This document shows positions 22,095 to 52,201 of a stretch of 64,000 nt of DNA, piece after piece. Source of the stretch: an uncultured virus (IMG/VR IMGVR_UViG_3300020578_000049) (taxonomy: Duplodnaviria; Heunggongvirae; Uroviricota; Caudoviricetes); IMG/VR virus record IMGVR_UViG_3300020578_000049. One strand, given 5' to 3'. Both the position numbers and the translations under genes were made by a program. Position 1 is the first letter of the stretch. Each line of letters opens with the position of its first letter. The notes beneath the pieces were generated by a model that saw only the letters and a list, made by a program, of their open reading frames with translations, was not told where the DNA came from and made no database searches.

Positions 22095-22963
22095 TGTATA
22101 GAAAAAGATTTATAATAACTGAAAGTGAAAAAAAACATATAAAAAATTTATATGGTTTGTTAGTTGAACAAAGGGGTAATGTAACTGGTTGTACTTTTAG
22201 TGATGTGTATAAAAACACGTTAAGTGATTATAATGAAATTATGACTAAATATGGTAATGACTTTAATAAAATTTCTGATATTTTAACAACTAAAGCAAAA
22301 GAAATAATACAGAATGTAAAAAATAAAAATCAAAATGAAAATATTGAATTTGAGTCTGCCTGTCAAGTAGCTTTAAACACTATAAGAACAAATTATCAAA
22401 ATAAACCTTGGTTAATAATAGATCAGGTTAAAAATACAGTTTATTTTTTTACTAATGGTGGGACATATTTAACTGGGACTTTAGCAATTATGGGAAAAGA
22501 TAAACCAACTGATGAATTTAAAGCTTGGTCTTTAATGGATGATGATGAAAGAAACAATTCTGGTTTTGACCCAATATCTAGAATTGGCGGTAGATTTGCA
22601 CCAACTGGTGTGTTTAATGCTGGACCAGGACAAACTTATACACAATATACAGGTGCCGGAACAAAAGAAACCCCAAAAAATAATCTTTGGTCTTTTTTTG
22701 ATGAGTCTGGTAAAGAATTGGTAACAGCAATACACGGTGTTAAAAATACCACAGAAAGAAATGAAGCGTTTAAATGTGTAAATGGTACAAAACTAACTAA
22801 AGAAACAAATTTAGATTTATCTAGTGGTTGTATAAATTTACCAACAAGTTTTTTGGATAAATTAACCAATTTAAATATCGATATATCTAAGTATAAAATT
22901 TTTAGCTTAGGTGATGAAAACTATTTAGTTAAAAATTCATCAAACATTGATAACATCACTTAA
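22094..22963 (+). CDS. L,D-transpeptidase (YkuD-like) with leader
   Basis: AIHGV...SSGCINL; leader RFIITESEKKHIKNLYGLLVE. Confidence 0.75.
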   Translation: MYRKRFIITESEKKHIKNLYGLLVEQRGNVTGCTFSDVYKNTLSDYNEIMTKYGNDFNKISDILTTKAKEIIQNVKNKNQNENIEFESACQVALNTIRTNYQNKPWLIIDQVKNTVYFFTNGGTYLTGTLAIMGKDKPTDEFKAWSLMDDDERNNSGFDPISRIGGRFAPTGVFNAGPGQTYTQYTGAGTKETPKNNLWSFFDESGKELVTAIHGVKNTTERNEAFKCVNGTKLTKETNLDLSSGCINLPTSFLDKLTNLNIDISKYKIFSLGDENYLVKNSSNIDNIT

Positions 22964-42884: not shown

Positions 42885-42987
42885 GATTACATATGAGGAA
42901 ATTAAGATGGCAACAAGGCCAAATGTGTATCGTAATAAAAAAAAATACACAAGAAAAGAAAAGTTTAAAAAAGATTTGGTAGATTAA
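42871..42987 (+). CDS. Small basic protein, ArfA-like motif
   Basis: RPNVYRNKKKYTRKEKFK. Confidence 0.5.
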   Translation: MKTIEITYEEIKMATRPNVYRNKKKYTRKEKFKKDLVD

Positions 42988-43038
42988 AAAATTCTACATA
43001 TCTTTGTAAGACAAATAAGGAATAAAGGTTCTTTGAAA
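42975..43038 (+). promoter_or_regulatory. Bacteroidota-type promoter plus boxA-like element
   Basis: TTTG 42975, TATCTTTG 42999-43006, GTTCTTTGAAA 43028-43038. Confidence 0.7.
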
Positions 43039-43050
43039 TATTGAAAAACA

Positions 43051-43143
43051 TTGTGGTTGTAAGAAACGGGAAACTCGTAAAGTGTATCAACCTGTTAAAT
43101 CAAGATAGTGAAACGAGAGTTTGATTTAACTACTAAACTACAA
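43051..43143 (+). ncRNA. Structured RNA element (three-stem junction)
   Basis: TTGTGGTT/AACTACAA closing stem; GTTAAATCAA/TTGATTTAAC 10 bp; ACGGG-AAA-CTCGT. Confidence 0.55.
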
Positions 43144-43149
43144 AAAAAC

Positions 43150-43254
43150 AGTCAAGTGGCGGAATTGGTAGACGCTGGGAGAGATACCCAAGACTCCTTG
43201 GAATAAGGTAAATATTACACTTATTCCGTGCAGGTTCGAATCCTGTCCTGACAA
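43150..43254 (+). ncRNA. tRNA-Leu-derived tRNA-like RNA with enlarged anticodon loop and long variable arm
   Basis: TGGCGGAATTGGTAGACGC D arm; GCAGG-TTCGAAT-CCTGT T arm; 12-nt anticodon loop. Confidence 0.65.
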
Positions 43255-43486
43255 CAGTGGTTACCTGACTCCGATAGGACGGTAAAACCCATTGGGAAAT
43301 CGGAAGTCCGTGAATGGGGGCGCAAGCAAAGAAGAACTTACAATGGTGGAGTGCCTAAGACAAAAGAAACGAAGCGTATGGGTGATCATGCGTTGGATTC
43401 AAATCTCCACCTTTTTTAAATTAAAAAAATTATGACACCACTATTGTTAATATCATTTATATTGTTTATGTTTGTCATAAGAAAAA

Positions 43487-43576
43487 GACATTAGTAAACT
43501 TCAGTTCCCACACAGCGGTGAGATGGGCTAAGTTATATACAATTCCTCGGGGCTGGGAGTAGAAAGCTGAAGAGTC
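43487..43576 (+). ncRNA. Structured RNA element
   Basis: CTTCAGTT/AGCTGAAG closing stem; CCCA/TGGG inner stem; GC-rich island. Confidence 0.45.
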
Positions 43577-43582
43577 GTTGTT

Positions 43583-43698
43583 TGTCAGGAGTGTAATGAG
43601 GCATGGTGCCGAGTCCGAAAAACACCACGGTCCAAGAGCAATTTGGACGCGAAAAGTTATAAGGTTGCTCATTGTGGGTTCGAATCCCACCCTGACAT
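43583..43698 (+). ncRNA. tRNA-like RNA with pseudoknotted insertion
   Basis: Acceptor TGTCAGG/CCTGACA; T arm GTGGG-TTCGAAT-CCCAC; internal hairpin whose loop pairs downstream. Confidence 0.65.
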
Positions 43699-43960
43699 CT
43701 AAAAAAGTTAATTTGAAATTTGTGGATAATATTTTATAATATAGTTCTATTCATCTATTACATTGTAACGTATTTTGTGTTCGTATTTATTAAAAAACAA
43801 ATATCATGGAAGTAATTATTGCTTGTTTAGTACCCATTTCTCTTATTGGAATTCTTTTAGTTTCTTATTTAAGATATAAGGGAAAATAAAATATAATTTG
43901 ATTTTTTTTCATTTCTTTTTGTATTTATATAAAAACAAATAAACGTTAAATCAAATTAAA

Positions 43961-45990: not shown

Positions 45991-46060
45991 CTTGACAAAT
46001 CAAAATAAATGTCTTAACTTTGTAAAACAATTCGGGAATGACCGAAAACGTTCTTTGAAA
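45991..46060 (+). promoter_or_regulatory. Bacteroidota-type promoter, hairpin and boxA-like element
   Basis: CTTG 45991, TAACTTTG 46015-46022, TTCGG-GAATGA-CCGAA, GTTCTTTGAAA 46050-46060. Confidence 0.7.
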
Positions 46061-46064
46061 ATAG

Positions 46065-46912
46065 AATTATCCGTTCAGGAGTAAGTAATGAAACTGATAA
46101 AGATATTGGGCCGTGTATAGTCCATAAAATAAACTGGGAAACCAGGATAAAGTGAATCATTCGTGTAAATGGTTTGCGGTTTGGGAAACTGAACGTGAGT
46201 ACACAAGCGGGATACCGTTTAACCTTTAATACCGAGGGCAACGCTGTAGGGAAAGTGGTTAGATGATTGGGCGATGTGGGTCGTCTGATTGAAGTGGGAA
46301 CACTAATAGGAATAACCCGTAGGAATATTGCAAAAAATAGAATTATCCAATTTTATCATTGCGTGTTCCAATATTAGAGATTGTTTAAAACCGAAAGGTA
46401 TGTTAATGTACGGGTGGTGCCGTTATTCACCTTGTCAAACTTGAACCAAGAAGTTAGACACGAAGTAGTCTTGAAGTATGGAAACTGGGAAGTTTCACGA
46501 AGTTGTTTAGTATTTCATAATCCAAAAGATAATGAAACTTTAGGTGGACCACAACTTCGATAATCCACAACACAAAAACATTTTTTTATAATTGGATATA
46601 AAAATCATAAAAGTAATAATGGAAAAGTGTCCATCACGGTATAACGGAAGTTGCCCACTTAGTCGTGAGATGTTCACGGCACATAAGGTTCCCAAGACCG
46701 AATGTATTTCTACCAAAAACCTCTAATCTCGCAAGGATTTACTGGGAAGGCATTCTCGGAGAGAGTTAAGTAATAGGAGAGTAGTTATATCGTTAAGGAG
46801 TGATTCACCTAAATAATCGGCAATGAGAAATACCATTCAAAAGATGGTGGATAAGAGTAGAAACAATAATGACTCTAAAGGTTCTCAATAAAACGTGTAA
46901 TCTCAACGTTCT
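46065..46912 (+). ncRNA. Large (~850 nt) highly structured ncRNA, GOLLD-like candidate
   Basis: No credible ORF; raised GC; many hairpins, several with GNRA loops; own promoter and boxA. Confidence 0.7.
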
Positions 46913-47061
46913 TTTTAAAATATTTTATAATAAAAAAATCAGTAAAAAAAGTAAAATACCGATTTTTAAAAAAATTATGGGGCAACAATTAGTTACCCTT
47001 TTCTTTTTATAAAAACTTTGATATATATTATTATAATAAACCTTTAATTACCTTATTCAAA

Positions 47062-47232
47062 ATGAAAAAATTAGTTTTACTTTCTGCTGCTTTTTTTACG
47101 ACAATTTCTCTTTTGACGGCTTGTGGTGAAAAAGGAACTGGAAACGCAACTTCAGATGCAACACCAGAAGCTACTGTTGAGGCAACTACTGAAGCTACGA
47201 CTGTTGTAAAAGATACTGCTGTTGTTAAGTAA
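47062..47232 (+). CDS. Small lipoprotein (56 aa)
   Basis: Lipobox LTAC; A/T/E-rich tail. Confidence 0.7.
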   Translation: MKKLVLLSAAFFTTISLLTACGEKGTGNATSDATPEATVEATTEATTVVKDTAVVK

Positions 47233-47286
47233 TTAGGAAATATCCTAAAAAAAGAAAACCCACTTCAAAAGAGTGGGTTTTTTAAT

Positions 47287-47677
47287 TGGTGGATCCGGAG
47301 GGACTCGAACCCTCGTCCGGTTCATCTTGTTTAAGAGACGACTACATGTTTAGGTTGGTATTTTCTAATACCCCAAAATATTTGATTTGTTCTTCAACAT
47401 CGTAAATCAACAACCAATGGTCCCGAATCGGATTTAGAGAGCCATCCGGTGTGCTCTATCAAACTACGACTTCTGTTGCTAGGTTATATGTCTGCCGACC
47501 CCCCGTTTCCGTATCTAATTAAGCTACAGTAACTTCAGAACCTCTTACTAATCCAAGAGTTTCCATTTTGTTTAGCACATTGCCAGTTGTTTTGTGAATC
47601 AGTTTTTAACGAGATTAATTCAGTCCCGACATGCTTCTATTATTCAACCAACGCCCGTCAAATCCAAAAACGGACCC
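47287..47677 (-). ncRNA. ssrA: tmRNA
   Basis: 5' GGGTCCG..GGATTTGAC; 3' GAGGGTTCGAGTCCCTC-CGGATCC-ACCA; G3.U70; tag frame 47584-47519. Confidence 0.92.
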
Positions 47678-47728
47678 ATAATATCAAAGAACTATATATA
47701 AATACAAATATAATTATATTTATCTAAT

Positions 47729-48778
47729 ATGGCAAGTGAAACCTATGAATTTTTACAAAAAGTTGCTAAAGGAAAAGAAACCAGTAGATGGTCTTACCCT
47801 GATGATTTAATTAATTACATTTCTTATTCAAAAGGTAAATCACCAAAAGTTGAAATTACTTTTGATGATGACGATGATTTTTTGGAAGTTTTAAATGTAA
47901 CAGATGATGATGATAAGTATATGTGGCGTAGATTTACTGGTAGAGGTTACTATGATTATGATTTTGATATGTGGAGATATGAAGAAGATTTTAGAGAAGG
48001 ATATATTGTTGGAGCTTTTAAAGGTGAAAACATTGTACTTACAAATAAAATTTTAAGTCTTACCGATCCAACCTTACAACTTAATGCCGATATAGTAGAT
48101 TACACACCTATTTCAAAATTTTTAGATGCAAAATTCCCAGATGAAATGTCTGATATTACATATGAATATGGGAGATATAATGAAGAATGTGTTTCAAGAG
48201 AAGTACAAAAAATACTAAGAAATGAAACAAATAATCCATTTAGAAACTTTGGTATTGTACAAAAACAACATTCTTATAAATTTGTAACATCTGTAAACAT
48301 TTTATTAAATCTATATAAAATGTTAAATGCTGAAGATGAAGATTTAAAAGGAATGTTAACATTATTATATAAAACTTATGGTGATAAAGATCCTGGTGGT
48401 TGGTACGATTTGGAATATAATGTTTTTTGTGATGATTATGATGAAGAAGGGTTCCAAAAAGAAGTTACTCGAAATCTTGAAAAGATTTTAGAAAGAGTTG
48501 AGGAAGATTTTGAAGGTGTTGACCAAGAAGAATATAATAAAATGCTTGATGTTATTTTAAAAATTGGTGGGTTTAATACTATTATTGAATTACCAGGTAA
48601 GAATATGCAAGTATTTTTCCATAGATTTGAACCCAGAACAAACAAATTATATTTTGATGTTTGGAAAGGAAATAAAAAAGAACAAAGGTCTATTACTAAT
48701 CTTGAAGATTTAAATTTAGCTCTATATCATCCTGAATTACTTGAAAATATAAAAAAAGTATTAAAAAAACTTTTGTAA
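47729..48778 (+). CDS. Acidic hypothetical protein
   Basis: TATTTAT 5 nt upstream; C-terminal LLENIKKVLKKLL. Confidence 0.75.
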   Translation: MASETYEFLQKVAKGKETSRWSYPDDLINYISYSKGKSPKVEITFDDDDDFLEVLNVTDDDDKYMWRRFTGRGYYDYDFDMWRYEEDFREGYIVGAFKGENIVLTNKILSLTDPTLQLNADIVDYTPISKFLDAKFPDEMSDITYEYGRYNEECVSREVQKILRNETNNPFRNFGIVQKQHSYKFVTSVNILLNLYKMLNAEDEDLKGMLTLLYKTYGDKDPGGWYDLEYNVFCDDYDEEGFQKEVTRNLEKILERVEEDFEGVDQEEYNKMLDVILKIGGFNTIIELPGKNMQVFFHRFEPRTNKLYFDVWKGNKKEQRSITNLEDLNLALYHPELLENIKKVLKKLL

Positions 48779-48806
48779 ATCAAAATAATATTTCTATATT
48801 TGTCGT

Positions 48807-49592
48807 ATGGAAAGAAATTTTGAACTATTAAAACAAGTACTATCGGTACCAACCAAAACTTATCAAGAAGATTTGATGATTGATTTTATAACAGAATGGT
48901 TGGATGAAAATAAAATCCCCTATTATGTTGATAACTTCTACAACATATATGCAACAAAACAAACTGATGAAAATATTAAATACTTTCCTTGTGTGGTTGC
49001 ACATACAGATACGGTACATACAATCGATTCTATCAATGTTGTTGAAGTACAACTACCAAACGCTCAAAAAGAAATTAAATTAGCCCTTAAAGCTTATAAC
49101 GATAAAGGAGAACCAATCGGTATTGGTGGTGATGATAAGTGTGGTGTTTATGCTTGTCTTGAATTACTAAAAGAATTACCAAATCTAAAAGCAGCCTTTT
49201 TTGTTGCCGAAGAAACCGGTTGTAAGGGATCATTTAATGCTGACCCCAAGTTTTTTAAAAATATTGGGTACGTAATTCAATTTGATGCACCAGAAAACAA
49301 TATGATTTCAGAATTCTTAATGAATAAACCAATGTTTAAAAGAGATTCAGATTTCTTTAATGTTGGGGGTCGTTTAATCACAGAACACTTTCCAGGCGAT
49401 ACCAAATACCACAGACACCCTTATACGGACATCTTTCCGTTAAATCAAAATTTTGGACTATCTTGTTTTAATATATCAATTGGTTATTACAACTATCACA
49501 CAAGAAATGAATATGTTGTTGTGGAAGATACCTACAACGGTATTAAGGTTGGTAAACTAATGATTGAAGAATTAGGTTACACTAAACATTAA
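48807..49592 (+). CDS. M20/M28-clan zinc peptidase
   Basis: VAHTDTVH; GGDDKCG; AEETGCKGS; YHT. Confidence 0.85.
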   Translation: MERNFELLKQVLSVPTKTYQEDLMIDFITEWLDENKIPYYVDNFYNIYATKQTDENIKYFPCVVAHTDTVHTIDSINVVEVQLPNAQKEIKLALKAYNDKGEPIGIGGDDKCGVYACLELLKELPNLKAAFFVAEETGCKGSFNADPKFFKNIGYVIQFDAPENNMISEFLMNKPMFKRDSDFFNVGGRLITEHFPGDTKYHRHPYTDIFPLNQNFGLSCFNISIGYYNYHTRNEYVVVEDTYNGIKVGKLMIEELGYTKH

Positions 49593-49608
49593 CAAAAAAG
49601 GAGGGTTT

Positions 49609-51669
49609 TTAATCCTCCTTTTTCTTTCTACCTCTTTTCTTTGGTTCTGGTTTTGTCCTGTCTTCAATTTCTATTGTTTGGTCTTCACCTTCTCCTTTAA
49701 CAAATAACATATATTCTTTTTCTTCCAGAACTTCATTTAATAATATTTTTTCTGAAATAAGGTCTTCTATTTTATCTTGAATGGCGCGTTTGATTGGTCT
49801 AGCACCATATTGTTCGTCAAAACCAACTTTTGCAATTAATTCAATTACAGATTGTTCATATGAAACTCTATATTTCATAGATGATAATCTATCAATAAGT
49901 TTGTCAATTTCTAATTTTACAATCTTATCAATATGTTCTTTTTTAAGTGAATTGAATATTACAACATCATCGATTCTATTTAAAAATTCTGGAGCAAAAA
50001 ACTTACTTAATTCTTTTTTCAAAACATCCCTTTTATATTCTTCCTGGACCGCATCACTATTATTGTTTGTTTTGAATCCAACGCCACTTCCAAAGTCTTG
50101 GACTTTTTTAACACCAATGTTTGATGTCATAATAATTAAACAGTTTTTGAAGTTGATTTTTCTACCCAAACCATCTGTCATATGACCGTCATCCAACATT
50201 TGAAGAAGTGTTGCAAAAATGTCTTTGTTTGCCTTTTCGATTTCATCAAATAAAATAACAGAGTATGGTTTGTTTTTAACTTGTTCTGTTAATTGTCCAC
50301 CTTCTTCGTGACCAACATATCCCGGAGGGGAACCAATAAGTCTTGATATGGTGTGTTTTTCTTGATATTCGGACATATCAACACGAATCAAACTATCTTC
50401 ACTACCAAAAATTTCTTTTGCTAATTTTTTTGCAAGGAATGTTTTACCAACACCGGTTGACCCAAGGAATATGAATGAACCAATTGGTCTATTTGGGTCC
50501 TTAATCCCAACCCTATTTCTTCTAATGGCTTTTGATATTTTTTTAACAGCTTCATCTTGACCAATTACAGAACCATTAAGTGAATCTTCCAAATTAACAA
50601 GTGAATTTTTTTCATCAATATTAATTTTACTTACTGGGATTTTTGTCATATTTGATACGACTTCATAAATCAAGTCTTCTGGGATACCACGTTTGCTAGT
50701 TCTTAATTTTTCTTCAAATTTCTTTTTTTCTTCGTCGAGTTTTGTTAAGATACTTTTTTCACGGTCACGAAGTTCTGCCGCCATTTCGTATTTTTGTTTT
50801 TTAATAACGTCAGCTTTTTCTTGTTTTACGTCCGCAGCTTCTTGCTTCAACTTTTCAATATGATCTGGAAGTTTTATATCAATTTGCATACGGGAACCAA
50901 CCTCATCTAAAATATCAAAAGCTTTATCTGGAAATTCCCTATCTGTAATATATCTATCTGCCAATTCTACACACAACCAAAGAGCTTCATCTGTATAATT
51001 AACTTTATGGTGTTCTTCATATTTTTCCTTACTTTGTTTTAAAATTTCAAAAGTTTCTTCTTTTGTTGAAGGATCAACGATTATTTTTTGAAATCTTCGT
51101 TCTAAAGCACCATCTTTTTCAAAATTTTTTCTATATTCATCAAGTGTTGTTGCACCAATACATTGTATTTCACCTCTTGATAATGCTGGTTTAAAAATGT
51201 TTGAGGCGTCCAATGAACCAGAACTATTACCAGCACCAACAATTGTATGAATTTCATCAATAAAAATTATAATATTTGGGCTTGATTGTAATTCTTCAAT
51301 TATAACCTTCATTCTTTCTTCAAATTGCCCACGATATTTTGTTCCGGCAACAATTGAATTAATGTCCAGTGAAACAATTCTTTTATCGGCTAAATTTTTT
51401 GGACATTCACCAGCGTGAATCATCATAGCTAAACCTTCTACAATTGCTGTTTTTCCAGCACCAGGTTCACCAATGATTATTGGATTATTTTTTTTTCTTC
51501 TGGATAATACTTGTGCTATTCTAAGTATTTCTTTTTGTCTTCCAATAACCGGATCTAATTTTCCTTGTTCTGCTAACTTAATCAAATCCTTACTGAAATT
51601 ATCTAAAACTGGGGTACCACCATCTTTCTTTTTACCCTTATCACCATCATCTACAAATTCTATTGCCAT
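49609..51669 (-). CDS. clpC: ClpC-like AAA+ unfoldase lacking the N-terminal Clp repeat domain
   Basis: GEPGAGKT and GSTGVGKT Walker A; UVR motif YEMAAELRD; VGF ClpP-docking loop. Confidence 0.88.
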   Translation of the reverse strand: MAIEFVDDGDKGKKKDGGTPVLDNFSKDLIKLAEQGKLDPVIGRQKEILRIAQVLSRRKKNNPIIIGEPGAGKTAIVEGLAMMIHAGECPKNLADKRIVSLDINSIVAGTKYRGQFEERMKVIIEELQSSPNIIIFIDEIHTIVGAGNSSGSLDASNIFKPALSRGEIQCIGATTLDEYRKNFEKDGALERRFQKIIVDPSTKEETFEILKQSKEKYEEHHKVNYTDEALWLCVELADRYITDREFPDKAFDILDEVGSRMQIDIKLPDHIEKLKQEAADVKQEKADVIKKQKYEMAAELRDREKSILTKLDEEKKKFEEKLRTSKRGIPEDLIYEVVSNMTKIPVSKINIDEKNSLVNLEDSLNGSVIGQDEAVKKISKAIRRNRVGIKDPNRPIGSFIFLGSTGVGKTFLAKKLAKEIFGSEDSLIRVDMSEYQEKHTISRLIGSPPGYVGHEEGGQLTEQVKNKPYSVILFDEIEKANKDIFATLLQMLDDGHMTDGLGRKINFKNCLIIMTSNIGVKKVQDFGSGVGFKTNNNSDAVQEEYKRDVLKKELSKFFAPEFLNRIDDVVIFNSLKKEHIDKIVKLEIDKLIDRLSSMKYRVSYEQSVIELIAKVGFDEQYGARPIKRAIQDKIEDLISEKILLNEVLEEKEYMLFVKGEGEDQTIEIEDRTKPEPKKRGRKKKED

Positions 51670-51711
51670 ATTAAAAAGTTTTATTTAATTTTAATTATAA
51701 ACTAACTAGTA

Positions 51712-51765
51712 GTCAATATTTGACATTCTGACATATGTTGTTAGAATATACTGACAAAATGTCAG
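51712..51765. promoter_or_regulatory. TGAC-based inverted repeats between divergent clpC and UVR gene
   Basis: CTGACA-AAA-TGTCAG 51751-51765; GTCAA-TAT-TTGAC 51712-51724. Confidence 0.55.
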
Positions 51766-51829
51766 TTTTATCATTTTGGTATGGATTTGGTCAAATCAGA
51801 ATCAAAATAAACTTATAAAAAAATAAATT

Positions 51830-52201
51830 ATGTTTGGAAGAAATTTTGACAAACTTTTTAATGAATTATTTAATTTCGAAAATCCATTTTTTAATGGATT
51901 AAACAACTTTGAAAAAAGAACTTATAAATCTGAAGATGGTTCTATTTCATTTACTTACATTACAAATGTCAAAGGTGACCTAAATAAATCAGATGAGGTT
52001 GACCTTTTAAAACAAAGACTTGAAATTGCAGTTGAAGAACAAAATTTTGAAGAAGCTGTGGAGTTGAGAGATAAGATTAAAAATCTGGAACAAAACAAAG
52101 AAAAAATAAGTAAGCTAAATAAAGAACTGGATGAATGTATTAAAAATCAGAACTTTGAAAAAGCGATAGAACTACGAGACAAAATCAACTCCCTAAAATA
52201 A
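51830..52201 (+). CDS. Double UVR (UvrB/C) motif protein, candidate ClpC adaptor
   Basis: AVEEQNFEEAVELRDKI and CIKNQNFEKAIELRDKI. Confidence 0.8.
   Translation: MFGRNFDKLFNELFNFENPFFNGLNNFEKRTYKSEDGSISFTYITNVKGDLNKSDEVDLLKQRLEIAVEEQNFEEAVELRDKIKNLEQNKEKISKLNKELDECIKNQNFEKAIELRDKINSLK

Follow-up and report, generated by a model that had tools for sequence, protein, structure and literature searches.

A GOLLD RNA gene with a boxA-like leader and a convergent tmRNA gene in an uncultured phage

The GOLLD locus and its extent

The window, which is the whole stretch of 64,000 nucleotides analysed here, carries a large RNA gene of the GOLLD family on its plus strand, with a tmRNA gene convergent to it and a gene-free stretch containing tRNA-like elements upstream. 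The features of the locus, in window coordinates, are as follows.

42976–43700, plus strand: gene-free stretch with tRNA-like elements, with a promoter match at 42976 and a boxA-like word
45992–46022, plus strand: putative Bacteroidota-type promoter, read from the sequence and conserved in relatives
46031–46046, plus strand: 5' terminal hairpin TTCGG-GAATGA-CCGAA, a hairpin call that is kept in relatives
46031–46497, plus strand: GOLLD 5' domain of about 467 nt, outside the Rfam model, with nhmmer homologues and covarying helices
46050–46058, plus strand: boxA-like leader motif GTTCTTTGA in the context AAAACGTTCTTTGAAAATA, from comparison of GOLLD and 16S leaders
46498–46909, plus strand: GOLLD 3' domain, the RF02032 match
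46560–46626, plus strand: AT-rich variable linker, unpaired in the Rfam consensus, GC 0.23
46725–46739, plus strand: hairpin with the loop CGCAA (46730–46734), read by a numbering offset as the self-complementary kissing loop L21a
46742–46759, plus strand: hairpin with the loop GGCA (46749–46752), read by the same kind of offset as the second symmetric kissing loop, L21b
46892–46916, plus strand: terminal hairpin with the conserved loop GUAAUCUCA, then a U-run; the last Rfam helix (helix 41) and the probable 3' end
46980–47008, both strands: hairpin with T-runs on both sides, a possible back-up or bidirectional terminator, with a terminator score on the minus strand
47677 to 47287, minus strand: phage tmRNA gene (RF00023, 103.6 bits, cut-off 47)

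The Rfam covariance model for GOLLD, RF02032, matches the window at 46498–46909 on the plus strand with 302.3 bits (E 1.5e-85, cut-off 150). The match spans model positions 1–416 of 416 and is not truncated. All 20 of the related loci that were tested with Rfam are also above the GOLLD cut-off, at 221–336 bits, and ROOL (RF03087) has no match in the window at Rfam thresholds. The original prediction had offered either GOLLD or a new large RNA class, to be decided by comparison with the Rfam models; with GOLLD matched at twice the cut-off, the first reading is borne out and the second is excluded by the score. A new class that is GOLLD-like merely in size and setting would fit with the 5' 467 nt being outside every Rfam model, and with the 5'-domain profile matching nothing at the GOLLD locus of an Acinetobacter phage. 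The 3' 412 nt, however, fit the GOLLD model end to end, and the two halves are contiguous in 55 loci, among the matches listed. A variable 5' domain is itself a described trait of GOLLD RNAs (PMC12286853, PMC12990946). The RF02032 score refutes this alternative, which retains almost no probability.

These data suggest, with a probability of roughly 0.93, that 46031–46915 on the plus strand is a complete GOLLD gene of about 885 nt, carried by a jumbo phage of about 290 kb that is uncultured and probably infects a freshwater member of the Bacteroidota. The family is a known one and this is a largely ordinary copy of it. The two-domain plan is present, with a variable 5' domain, a variable linker, and a conserved 3' domain making up the total length.

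Conservation begins at the 5' hairpin and, in the alignment of 45 sequences described below (A2), ceases after the T-run behind the terminal hairpin, hence the placement of the gene at about 46031–46915. The bounds first proposed were 46065 to 46912. The end, near 46912, was well placed, and the start was not, since the conserved RNA begins near 46031, 35 nt earlier; the length, given as about 850 nt, is extended accordingly. The hairpin at 46980–47008 has one C-A mismatch on the plus strand and is followed there by TTTTCTTTTT. A hairpin terminator is found 30–60 nt behind GOLLD in many of the relatives in A2, and the hairpin in the window may be a back-up terminator.

No convincing ORF is present, in agreement with the description of the region as non-coding. 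The frames in 46014–46912 are of 40–75 aa only, mostly with TTG starts, and none of the six internal frames tested has a Pfam match. GC content is 0.40–0.48 at 46130–46310 and 46610–46790, 0.23 at 46550–46640, and 0.12–0.30 in the flanks. This profile agrees with the two GC-richer halves split by an AT-rich linker that had been noticed initially, and the AT-rich stretch is the variable linker of the GOLLD family. The single-sequence fold has a free energy of -212.2 kcal/mol and a z of -2.41, with 0 of 20 shuffles as good; for the opposite strand, z is -1.71 against shuffles. The single-sequence signal is modest and suggestive only; the strength of the case for a structured RNA comes from the family match and from covariation.

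The phage association that had been proposed is supported by the neighbouring genes. The sequence is a virus record of 72,225 bases with an estimated completeness of 25% (IMG/VR IMGVR_UViG_3300020578_000049). Genes for a large terminase, a T4-type portal and a prohead protease lie in the window, and other RNA genes are nearby. The completeness of two relatives, 290,887 and 291,867 bp long, is put at 99%, so the record represents part of a jumbo phage genome of about 290 kb. A CHU_C type IX secretion domain, enrichment of a promoter motif, and a leader motif common with Bacteroidota 16S leaders are the host hints that point to the Bacteroidota. The GMP-reductase-like protein has no close bacterial relative in the genome collection, so the host is deduced from the motifs and one domain only. 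Host-like metabolic genes are present in the phage at 22956–24324 and 13683–14108, both on the minus strand; the metabolic genes include a GMP reductase/IMPDH-family gene (Pfam 1.6e-55), a 4HBT thioesterase and an FKBP-type prolyl isomerase.

Relatives and covariation

A 16-base word from the 5' half occurs in at least 120 IMG/VR contigs. By nhmmer, the 5' half is matched in 95 of 122 IMG/VR loci and both halves are matched in 55, among the matches listed; many of the loci without a 3'-half match have too little DNA to include the 3' half. Alignment A2 contains the window and 44 full-length relatives from those 55, aligned with MAFFT, identical copies and copies more than 97% alike having been removed. 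More distant matches to the 5' half were found by blastn in phage records, where two huge phages, both uncultured and 642 and 635 kb in size, match 46108–46397 at 68–70%. In both of these, a GOLLD Rfam match lies directly behind the 5'-half match. Against cultured phages, blastn finds the 3' end alone, in eight Acinetobacter phage records, and no close cultured relative.

The RNAalifold consensus fold of the 45 sequences has 244 pairs in 41 helices. Standard pairs are formed in 95.0% of the cells, compared to 37.6–44.0% with the partners slid by 1–3 columns, and 163 of the 244 pairs have changes on both sides, compared to 57–81 with the partners slid; the slid controls flatter the fold because the structure was derived from the same alignment that was used for counting, and the changes are not independent events because the phages that supplied the 45 sequences are kin. 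Not one of the observed pairing measures is equalled in 500 column shuffles. Helices 3–24, which form the 5' domain, are 83.5–100% paired, with compensatory changes in all but helices 8 and 16. The 5' domain is supported as well as the 3' domain that is modelled in Rfam. In the GOLLD of Acinetobacter phage Herod, the 5'-domain nhmmer profile finds no significant match, therefore the 5' domain is not claimed to be common to all GOLLD RNAs. A short local resemblance to Herod can be seen by eye around GGGYCGTGTATA...ATAAAGT.

Dense stems had been predicted, with six named as examples and covariation proposed as the check. Five of these are real helices, all with compensatory changes in relatives. 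CTGG-GAAA-CCAG at 46134–46145 is helix 4, which is 100% paired; TGTCAAACTT/AAGTTAGACA corresponds to helices 22–23, GTCGTGA/TCACGGC to helix 30, and AACGT/ACGTT to helix 41. GAAACT-GGGA-AGTTTC is helix 24, where six out of six pairs change on both sides. The sixth, GGTTAGATGATT/GGTCGTCTGATT, does not form a stem; its two strings lack complementarity and are arms of different neighbouring helices, 10 and 12. The covariation looked for is present, in the 163 pairs changed on both sides. Invariant GAAA loops are found at 46138–46141 and 46394–46397.

The region could in principle be a decayed protein gene or a non-functional spacer in which hairpins occur by chance, as short frames exist and the single-sequence z of -2.41 is modest. 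Against this, the 163 pairs persist through changes on both sides, the six internal frames are without Pfam match, and at least 95 viral loci show strong conservation, in addition to the family match. It is the covariation that refutes decay or chance, and the likelihood left to it is negligible.

Length variants are seen among the relatives. In the related IMG/VR contig L044, the GOLLD at 1882–2229 is missing about 60–70 nt of the 3' domain and still scores 221 bits. The gap takes in the hairpins between AAGG and CAATAAT and is either a natural deletion or an assembly gap. In four huge phages of 263–642 kb (L002, L003, L017, and L067), GOLLD is directly behind a tRNA (tRNA-Met where called) and further tRNA-like genes are behind GOLLD. 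These four keep the hairpin and a GTTCTTTGAAAT leader, which is a variant in L002. The helix with the ACCAAG loop has insertions of 20–45 nt in L002, L003, and L067, and not in L017.

Putative promoter, leader and the neighbouring RNA genes

The Bacteroidota promoter consensus is TTG/TAnnTTTG. Ahead of the GOLLD gene there is a -33 TTG at 45992–45994, within TTGACA, and a -7 element TAACTTTG at 46015–46022, the two being 20 nt apart. This block is conserved in most of the A2 homologues that are not directly behind a tRNA. The pattern TTG-N18-22-TAnnTTTG is found 27 times in the window, compared to 15.4 +/- 3.9 (maximum 22) in 50 resampled sequences. The GOLLD gene therefore has a putative TTG/TAnnTTTG promoter of its own. 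The 5' hairpin that follows covaries, with TCGG/CCGA replaced by CAGG/CCTG in relatives in A2.

The motif GTTCTTTGA is located at about +20 of the predicted GOLLD transcript and is exact in 43 of the 45 aligned GOLLD leaders. Leaders of 16S genes were surveyed for comparison using a published 16S probe, which gave 121 loci from named genomes, nearly all titled Bacteroidota, 62 of them with a leader of at least 250 nt. The exact motif is present on the sense strand of 19 of these 62 leaders, mostly of Bacteroidota, 91–204 nt upstream of 16S, and a form relaxed by one letter is present in 25. On the antisense strand of the same 62 leaders, neither the exact nor the relaxed form occurs (0 of 62). 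The flanks of the motif in the 16S leaders are often similar as well, for example AAACGTTCTTTGAAAATATTG. The other 37 leaders do not have even the relaxed motif, and it is therefore not universal in the Bacteroidota; many leaders of Flavobacteriaceae are without the motif. Within the window GTTCTTTGA occurs three times, with 0.94 expected and 7 of 100 shuffles reaching three. Each of the three follows closely on a full promoter match, in the sense orientation; they are found ahead of GOLLD, ahead of the tmRNA gene, and at 43028.

The boxA of rRNA operon leaders binds NusB and NusE/S10 and has a role in antitermination. The GOLLD motif resembles it in having A-rich flanks and in following a hairpin near the start of a transcript that is long, structured and untranslated. 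It differs in that, as read from the window, GTTCTTTGA would head phage RNA genes, namely GOLLD, the tmRNA and the tRNA-like array. GTTCTTTGA is read here as a putative boxA-type signal in the GOLLD leader, which may bind Nus factors. In the literature searched, no association of GOLLD with boxA, antitermination or tmRNA adjacency was found; PMC12990946 mentions antitermination solely in a T-box reference.

The same nucleotides might instead pair over a long range, as one side of a helix closing the entire RNA. RNAalifold pairs UCUUUGA with UUAAGGA (46798–46804) of the 3' domain as helix 1, with 94.6% of the cells paired. A change on both sides is, however, seen in only 1 of the 7 pairs and in one sequence alone. 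Helix 1 is thus without real covariation and was set aside from the RNAalifold structure. The Rfam consensus keeps AAGGAG whatever the leader, the same 9-mer as in GOLLD heads the leaders of the tmRNA and of the tRNA-like array where there is no such partner, and GTTCTTTGA also stands in bacterial 16S leaders. The long-range helix would therefore seem an unlikely explanation of the motif, and a boxA-type signal is the reading used below.

The tmRNA gene is on the opposite strand, 372 nt downstream of GOLLD and convergent with it. ARAGORN does not find a tmRNA at 47287–47677, even with a relaxed threshold; the Rfam call is accepted because 26 related records score likewise. These are the 26 of 44 related records in which a tmRNA is above the cut-off. 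In 25 of the 26 the tmRNA is 115–3,402 nt beyond the GOLLD 3' end, as estimated from a fixed offset, and in the remaining record it is 151 kb away. The two genes are convergent in 24 of the 25 and on the same strand in one. This arrangement should be seen as conserved synteny, rather than proof of a functional link, since the phages are kin. The full promoter match ahead of the tmRNA begins at 47735, and GTTCTTTGA is at 47692–47684 on the minus strand, 7 nt before the tmRNA 5' end. Among the 20 tmRNA leaders examined, of the 26 on record, GTTCTTTGA is exact in 9, and the other 11 have a one-letter variant in the same place (8 with GTTATTTGA, 2 with GTTCATTGA, and 1 with GTTCTTTAA). A TAnnTTTG box is present in 18 of the 20.

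Several other features are found around the tmRNA gene. A strong bidirectional terminator is located behind it, at 47255–47281. Between GOLLD and the tmRNA, at 47062–47232 on the plus strand, there is an ORF of 56 aa whose start resembles a signal peptide and in which LLTA is followed by a Cys; it is lipoprotein-like, and no family match was found for it. Beside the tmRNA, at 47729–52201 of the window, are genes for a 349-aa protein without known family, a metallopeptidase-like protein (48807–49592; weak M20/M28/M42 matches, PHROG peptidase 1e-34), a ClpB/ClpC-like double AAA+ unfoldase (49609–51669, minus strand), and a UVR-motif protein (51830–52201).

No tRNA gene adjoins GOLLD in the window. 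The nearby setting consists of a tRNA-Arg 5.1 kb upstream and the tRNA-like array 2.3–3 kb upstream. A tRNA-Met on the same strand within 300 nt upstream is present in 11 of the 44 relatives, and not in the window. In the tRNA-like stretch at 42976–43700, the boxA-like word is at 43028–43036 in the context GGTTCTTTGAAATATTG, and three tRNA-like T-arm and acceptor ends can be recognized. The Rfam tRNA match here, at 43150–43254, is sub-threshold (24.1 bits, cut-off 29). ARAGORN, at a relaxed threshold only, reports "tRNAs" at 43150–43255 and 43583–43699, with anticodon-loop insertions of 32 and 43 nt. An array of tRNAs that are unusual or degenerate is one possibility for this stretch, and some other structured RNA is another.

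The RNA, its predicted assembly and comparison with known cages

Contigs of GOLLD relatives (85% likeness) cover 46078–46900 in all four of the freshwater or river metatranscriptome runs, which come from three studies. Summed contig depth reaches about 64,000 over GOLLD, compared to 0–68 in the flanks, which are less conserved and match less well. In the sequencing runs, the share of sampled words found in any run is at most 0.11, and uncovered flanks are not evidence of silence. GOLLD-type RNAs or their genes occur in RNA libraries, as assembled contigs for which DNA carry-over is possible.

A cut in the AT-rich linker, or a second promoter within it, would generate two separate RNAs, one 5' and one 3'. 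In the env-38 GOLLD structure the two domains are separate from each other and fold independently (PMC12286853), and some GOLLD RNAs have a tRNA in the linker (PMC12990946), which would favour processing. Sigma-70-like hexamers are present in the linker of the window at 46564–46592. The metatranscriptome contigs are all short, and their summed depth is higher over the 5' domain, yet contig depth cannot rank the parts of a gene. In the window, however, the linker contains no tRNA and no match to the TTG/TAnnTTTG promoter. It is closed by helix 26 (about 46542–46548 with 46629–46635), a covarying helix with 7 of its 10 pairs changed on both sides, which ties the halves together. Full-length env-38 also assembles as one chain (PMC12286853). 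A split into two RNAs is thus considered very improbable, and a single RNA containing both domains is taken as the gene product in what follows.

GOLLD RNAs assemble protein-free into closed cages, in which the 5' domains are the caps and the 3' domains the ring (PMC12286853, PMC12990946). The env-38 GOLLD, from a marine metagenome, is a 14-mer cage by cryo-EM (Kretsch et al. 2025; PMC12286853), and its disordered linker points into the cage. The GOLLD of S. agalactiae is mainly a 10-mer and is without P21b and several 5' helices (PMC12990946). Expression of GOLLD rises at phage lysis and ribosomes are pulled down with it; both papers describe the purpose of the cage as unknown (PMC12286853, PMC12990946). 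Of the kissing loops, L21a shows a GC/CG switch and L21b is highly conserved (PMC12286853). In A2 the L21a-like loop is CGCAA in 36 and GUCGA in 9 of the 45 sequences, and the L21b-like loop has a central GC in all 45. These loops thus appear to behave as the published L21a and L21b, the helix names being assigned by a model-numbering offset rather than by alignment with env-38.

Transcription of the window RNA would start at about 46029–46031 from the host-type TTG/TAnnTTTG promoter. At somewhat less than even odds, the 5' hairpin and boxA-like GTTCTTTGA might recruit host Nus factors, enabling RNA polymerase to read through a long, hairpin-rich, untranslated RNA. The RNA would end at the terminal hairpin and U-run near 46916. 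It is likely, by homology with env-38, that many copies would assemble protein-free into a closed cage, and the chances are about equal that this would be a 14-mer or that it would have another even number of chains. The 5' domains would be the caps, the 3' domains the ring, and the linker would face the interior, with the self-complementary loops at 46730–46734 and 46749–46752 joining two half-shells. Given the neighbouring genes, the cage might be a particle of late infection in which components of the translation apparatus are held or shielded; this is the preferred guess, though a doubtful one.

A broader reading is that, in this clade of freshwater jumbo phages of roughly 290 kb, GOLLD, the tmRNA and the tRNA-like array are three stand-alone units, each with a host-type promoter and an rRNA-leader boxA, through which the phage would borrow host ribosomal antitermination. 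The pairing of GOLLD with the tmRNA, by the ClpC-like unfoldase and the peptidase, would then tie the cage functionally to ribosome rescue run by the phage. This proposal is speculative and improbable as a whole. If true, the three-unit boxA reading and the tie to ribosome rescue would be the first functional handle on GOLLD, one of the largest RNAs of bacteria or phages for which a structure has been solved. The family definition is unchanged by the window copy, and only the boxA-like leader common to three RNA genes and the conserved pairing of GOLLD and tmRNA go beyond the ordinary. These might aid work on function, or could be the mere shared ancestry of related phages. Covariation studies of the 5' domain, for which little modelling exists, can make good use of the subgroup, since it has at least 55 full-length, well-aligned jumbo-phage relatives.

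GOLLD was reportedly described by Weinberg et al. in 2009 from a Lactobacillus brevis prophage and others. The L. brevis RNA and the other RF02032 members are like the window copy in belonging to the same Rfam family and in being phage-borne; they lie near tRNA genes. The host phylum of the window copy differs from that of the L. brevis GOLLD, and it is carried by a virus contig, not having been seen as a prophage. ROOL is likewise a large, phage-associated RNA; it is found near tRNAs and makes an RNA-only cage (PMC12286853), yet it is unrelated to the window RNA in sequence and fold.

The env-38 and window RNAs are alike in their two domains, conserved 3' domain, AT-rich linker, L21a- and L21b-like loops, and GAAA loops. 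Both have a phage or tRNA-type neighbourhood, and they are of similar length, at 833 nt for env-38 and about 885 nt for the window copy. Differences are also seen. The env-38 gene is behind a tRNA-Met, as are 11 of the 44 relatives, whereas the window copy has its own putative promoter and boxA-like leader instead. Compared without alignment, the 5' domain of the window copy is about 47 nt longer, and its linker is about 67 nt rather than 42 nt. The window copy comes from a freshwater jumbo phage of Bacteroidota type and env-38 from a marine metagenome. The S. agalactiae GOLLD has the same conserved 3' domain as the window copy, which, unlike it, keeps a P21b-like hairpin and a large 5' domain. 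Because this P21b-like hairpin is absent from the RNA that forms the 10-mer, the window RNA looks closer to the env-38 type.
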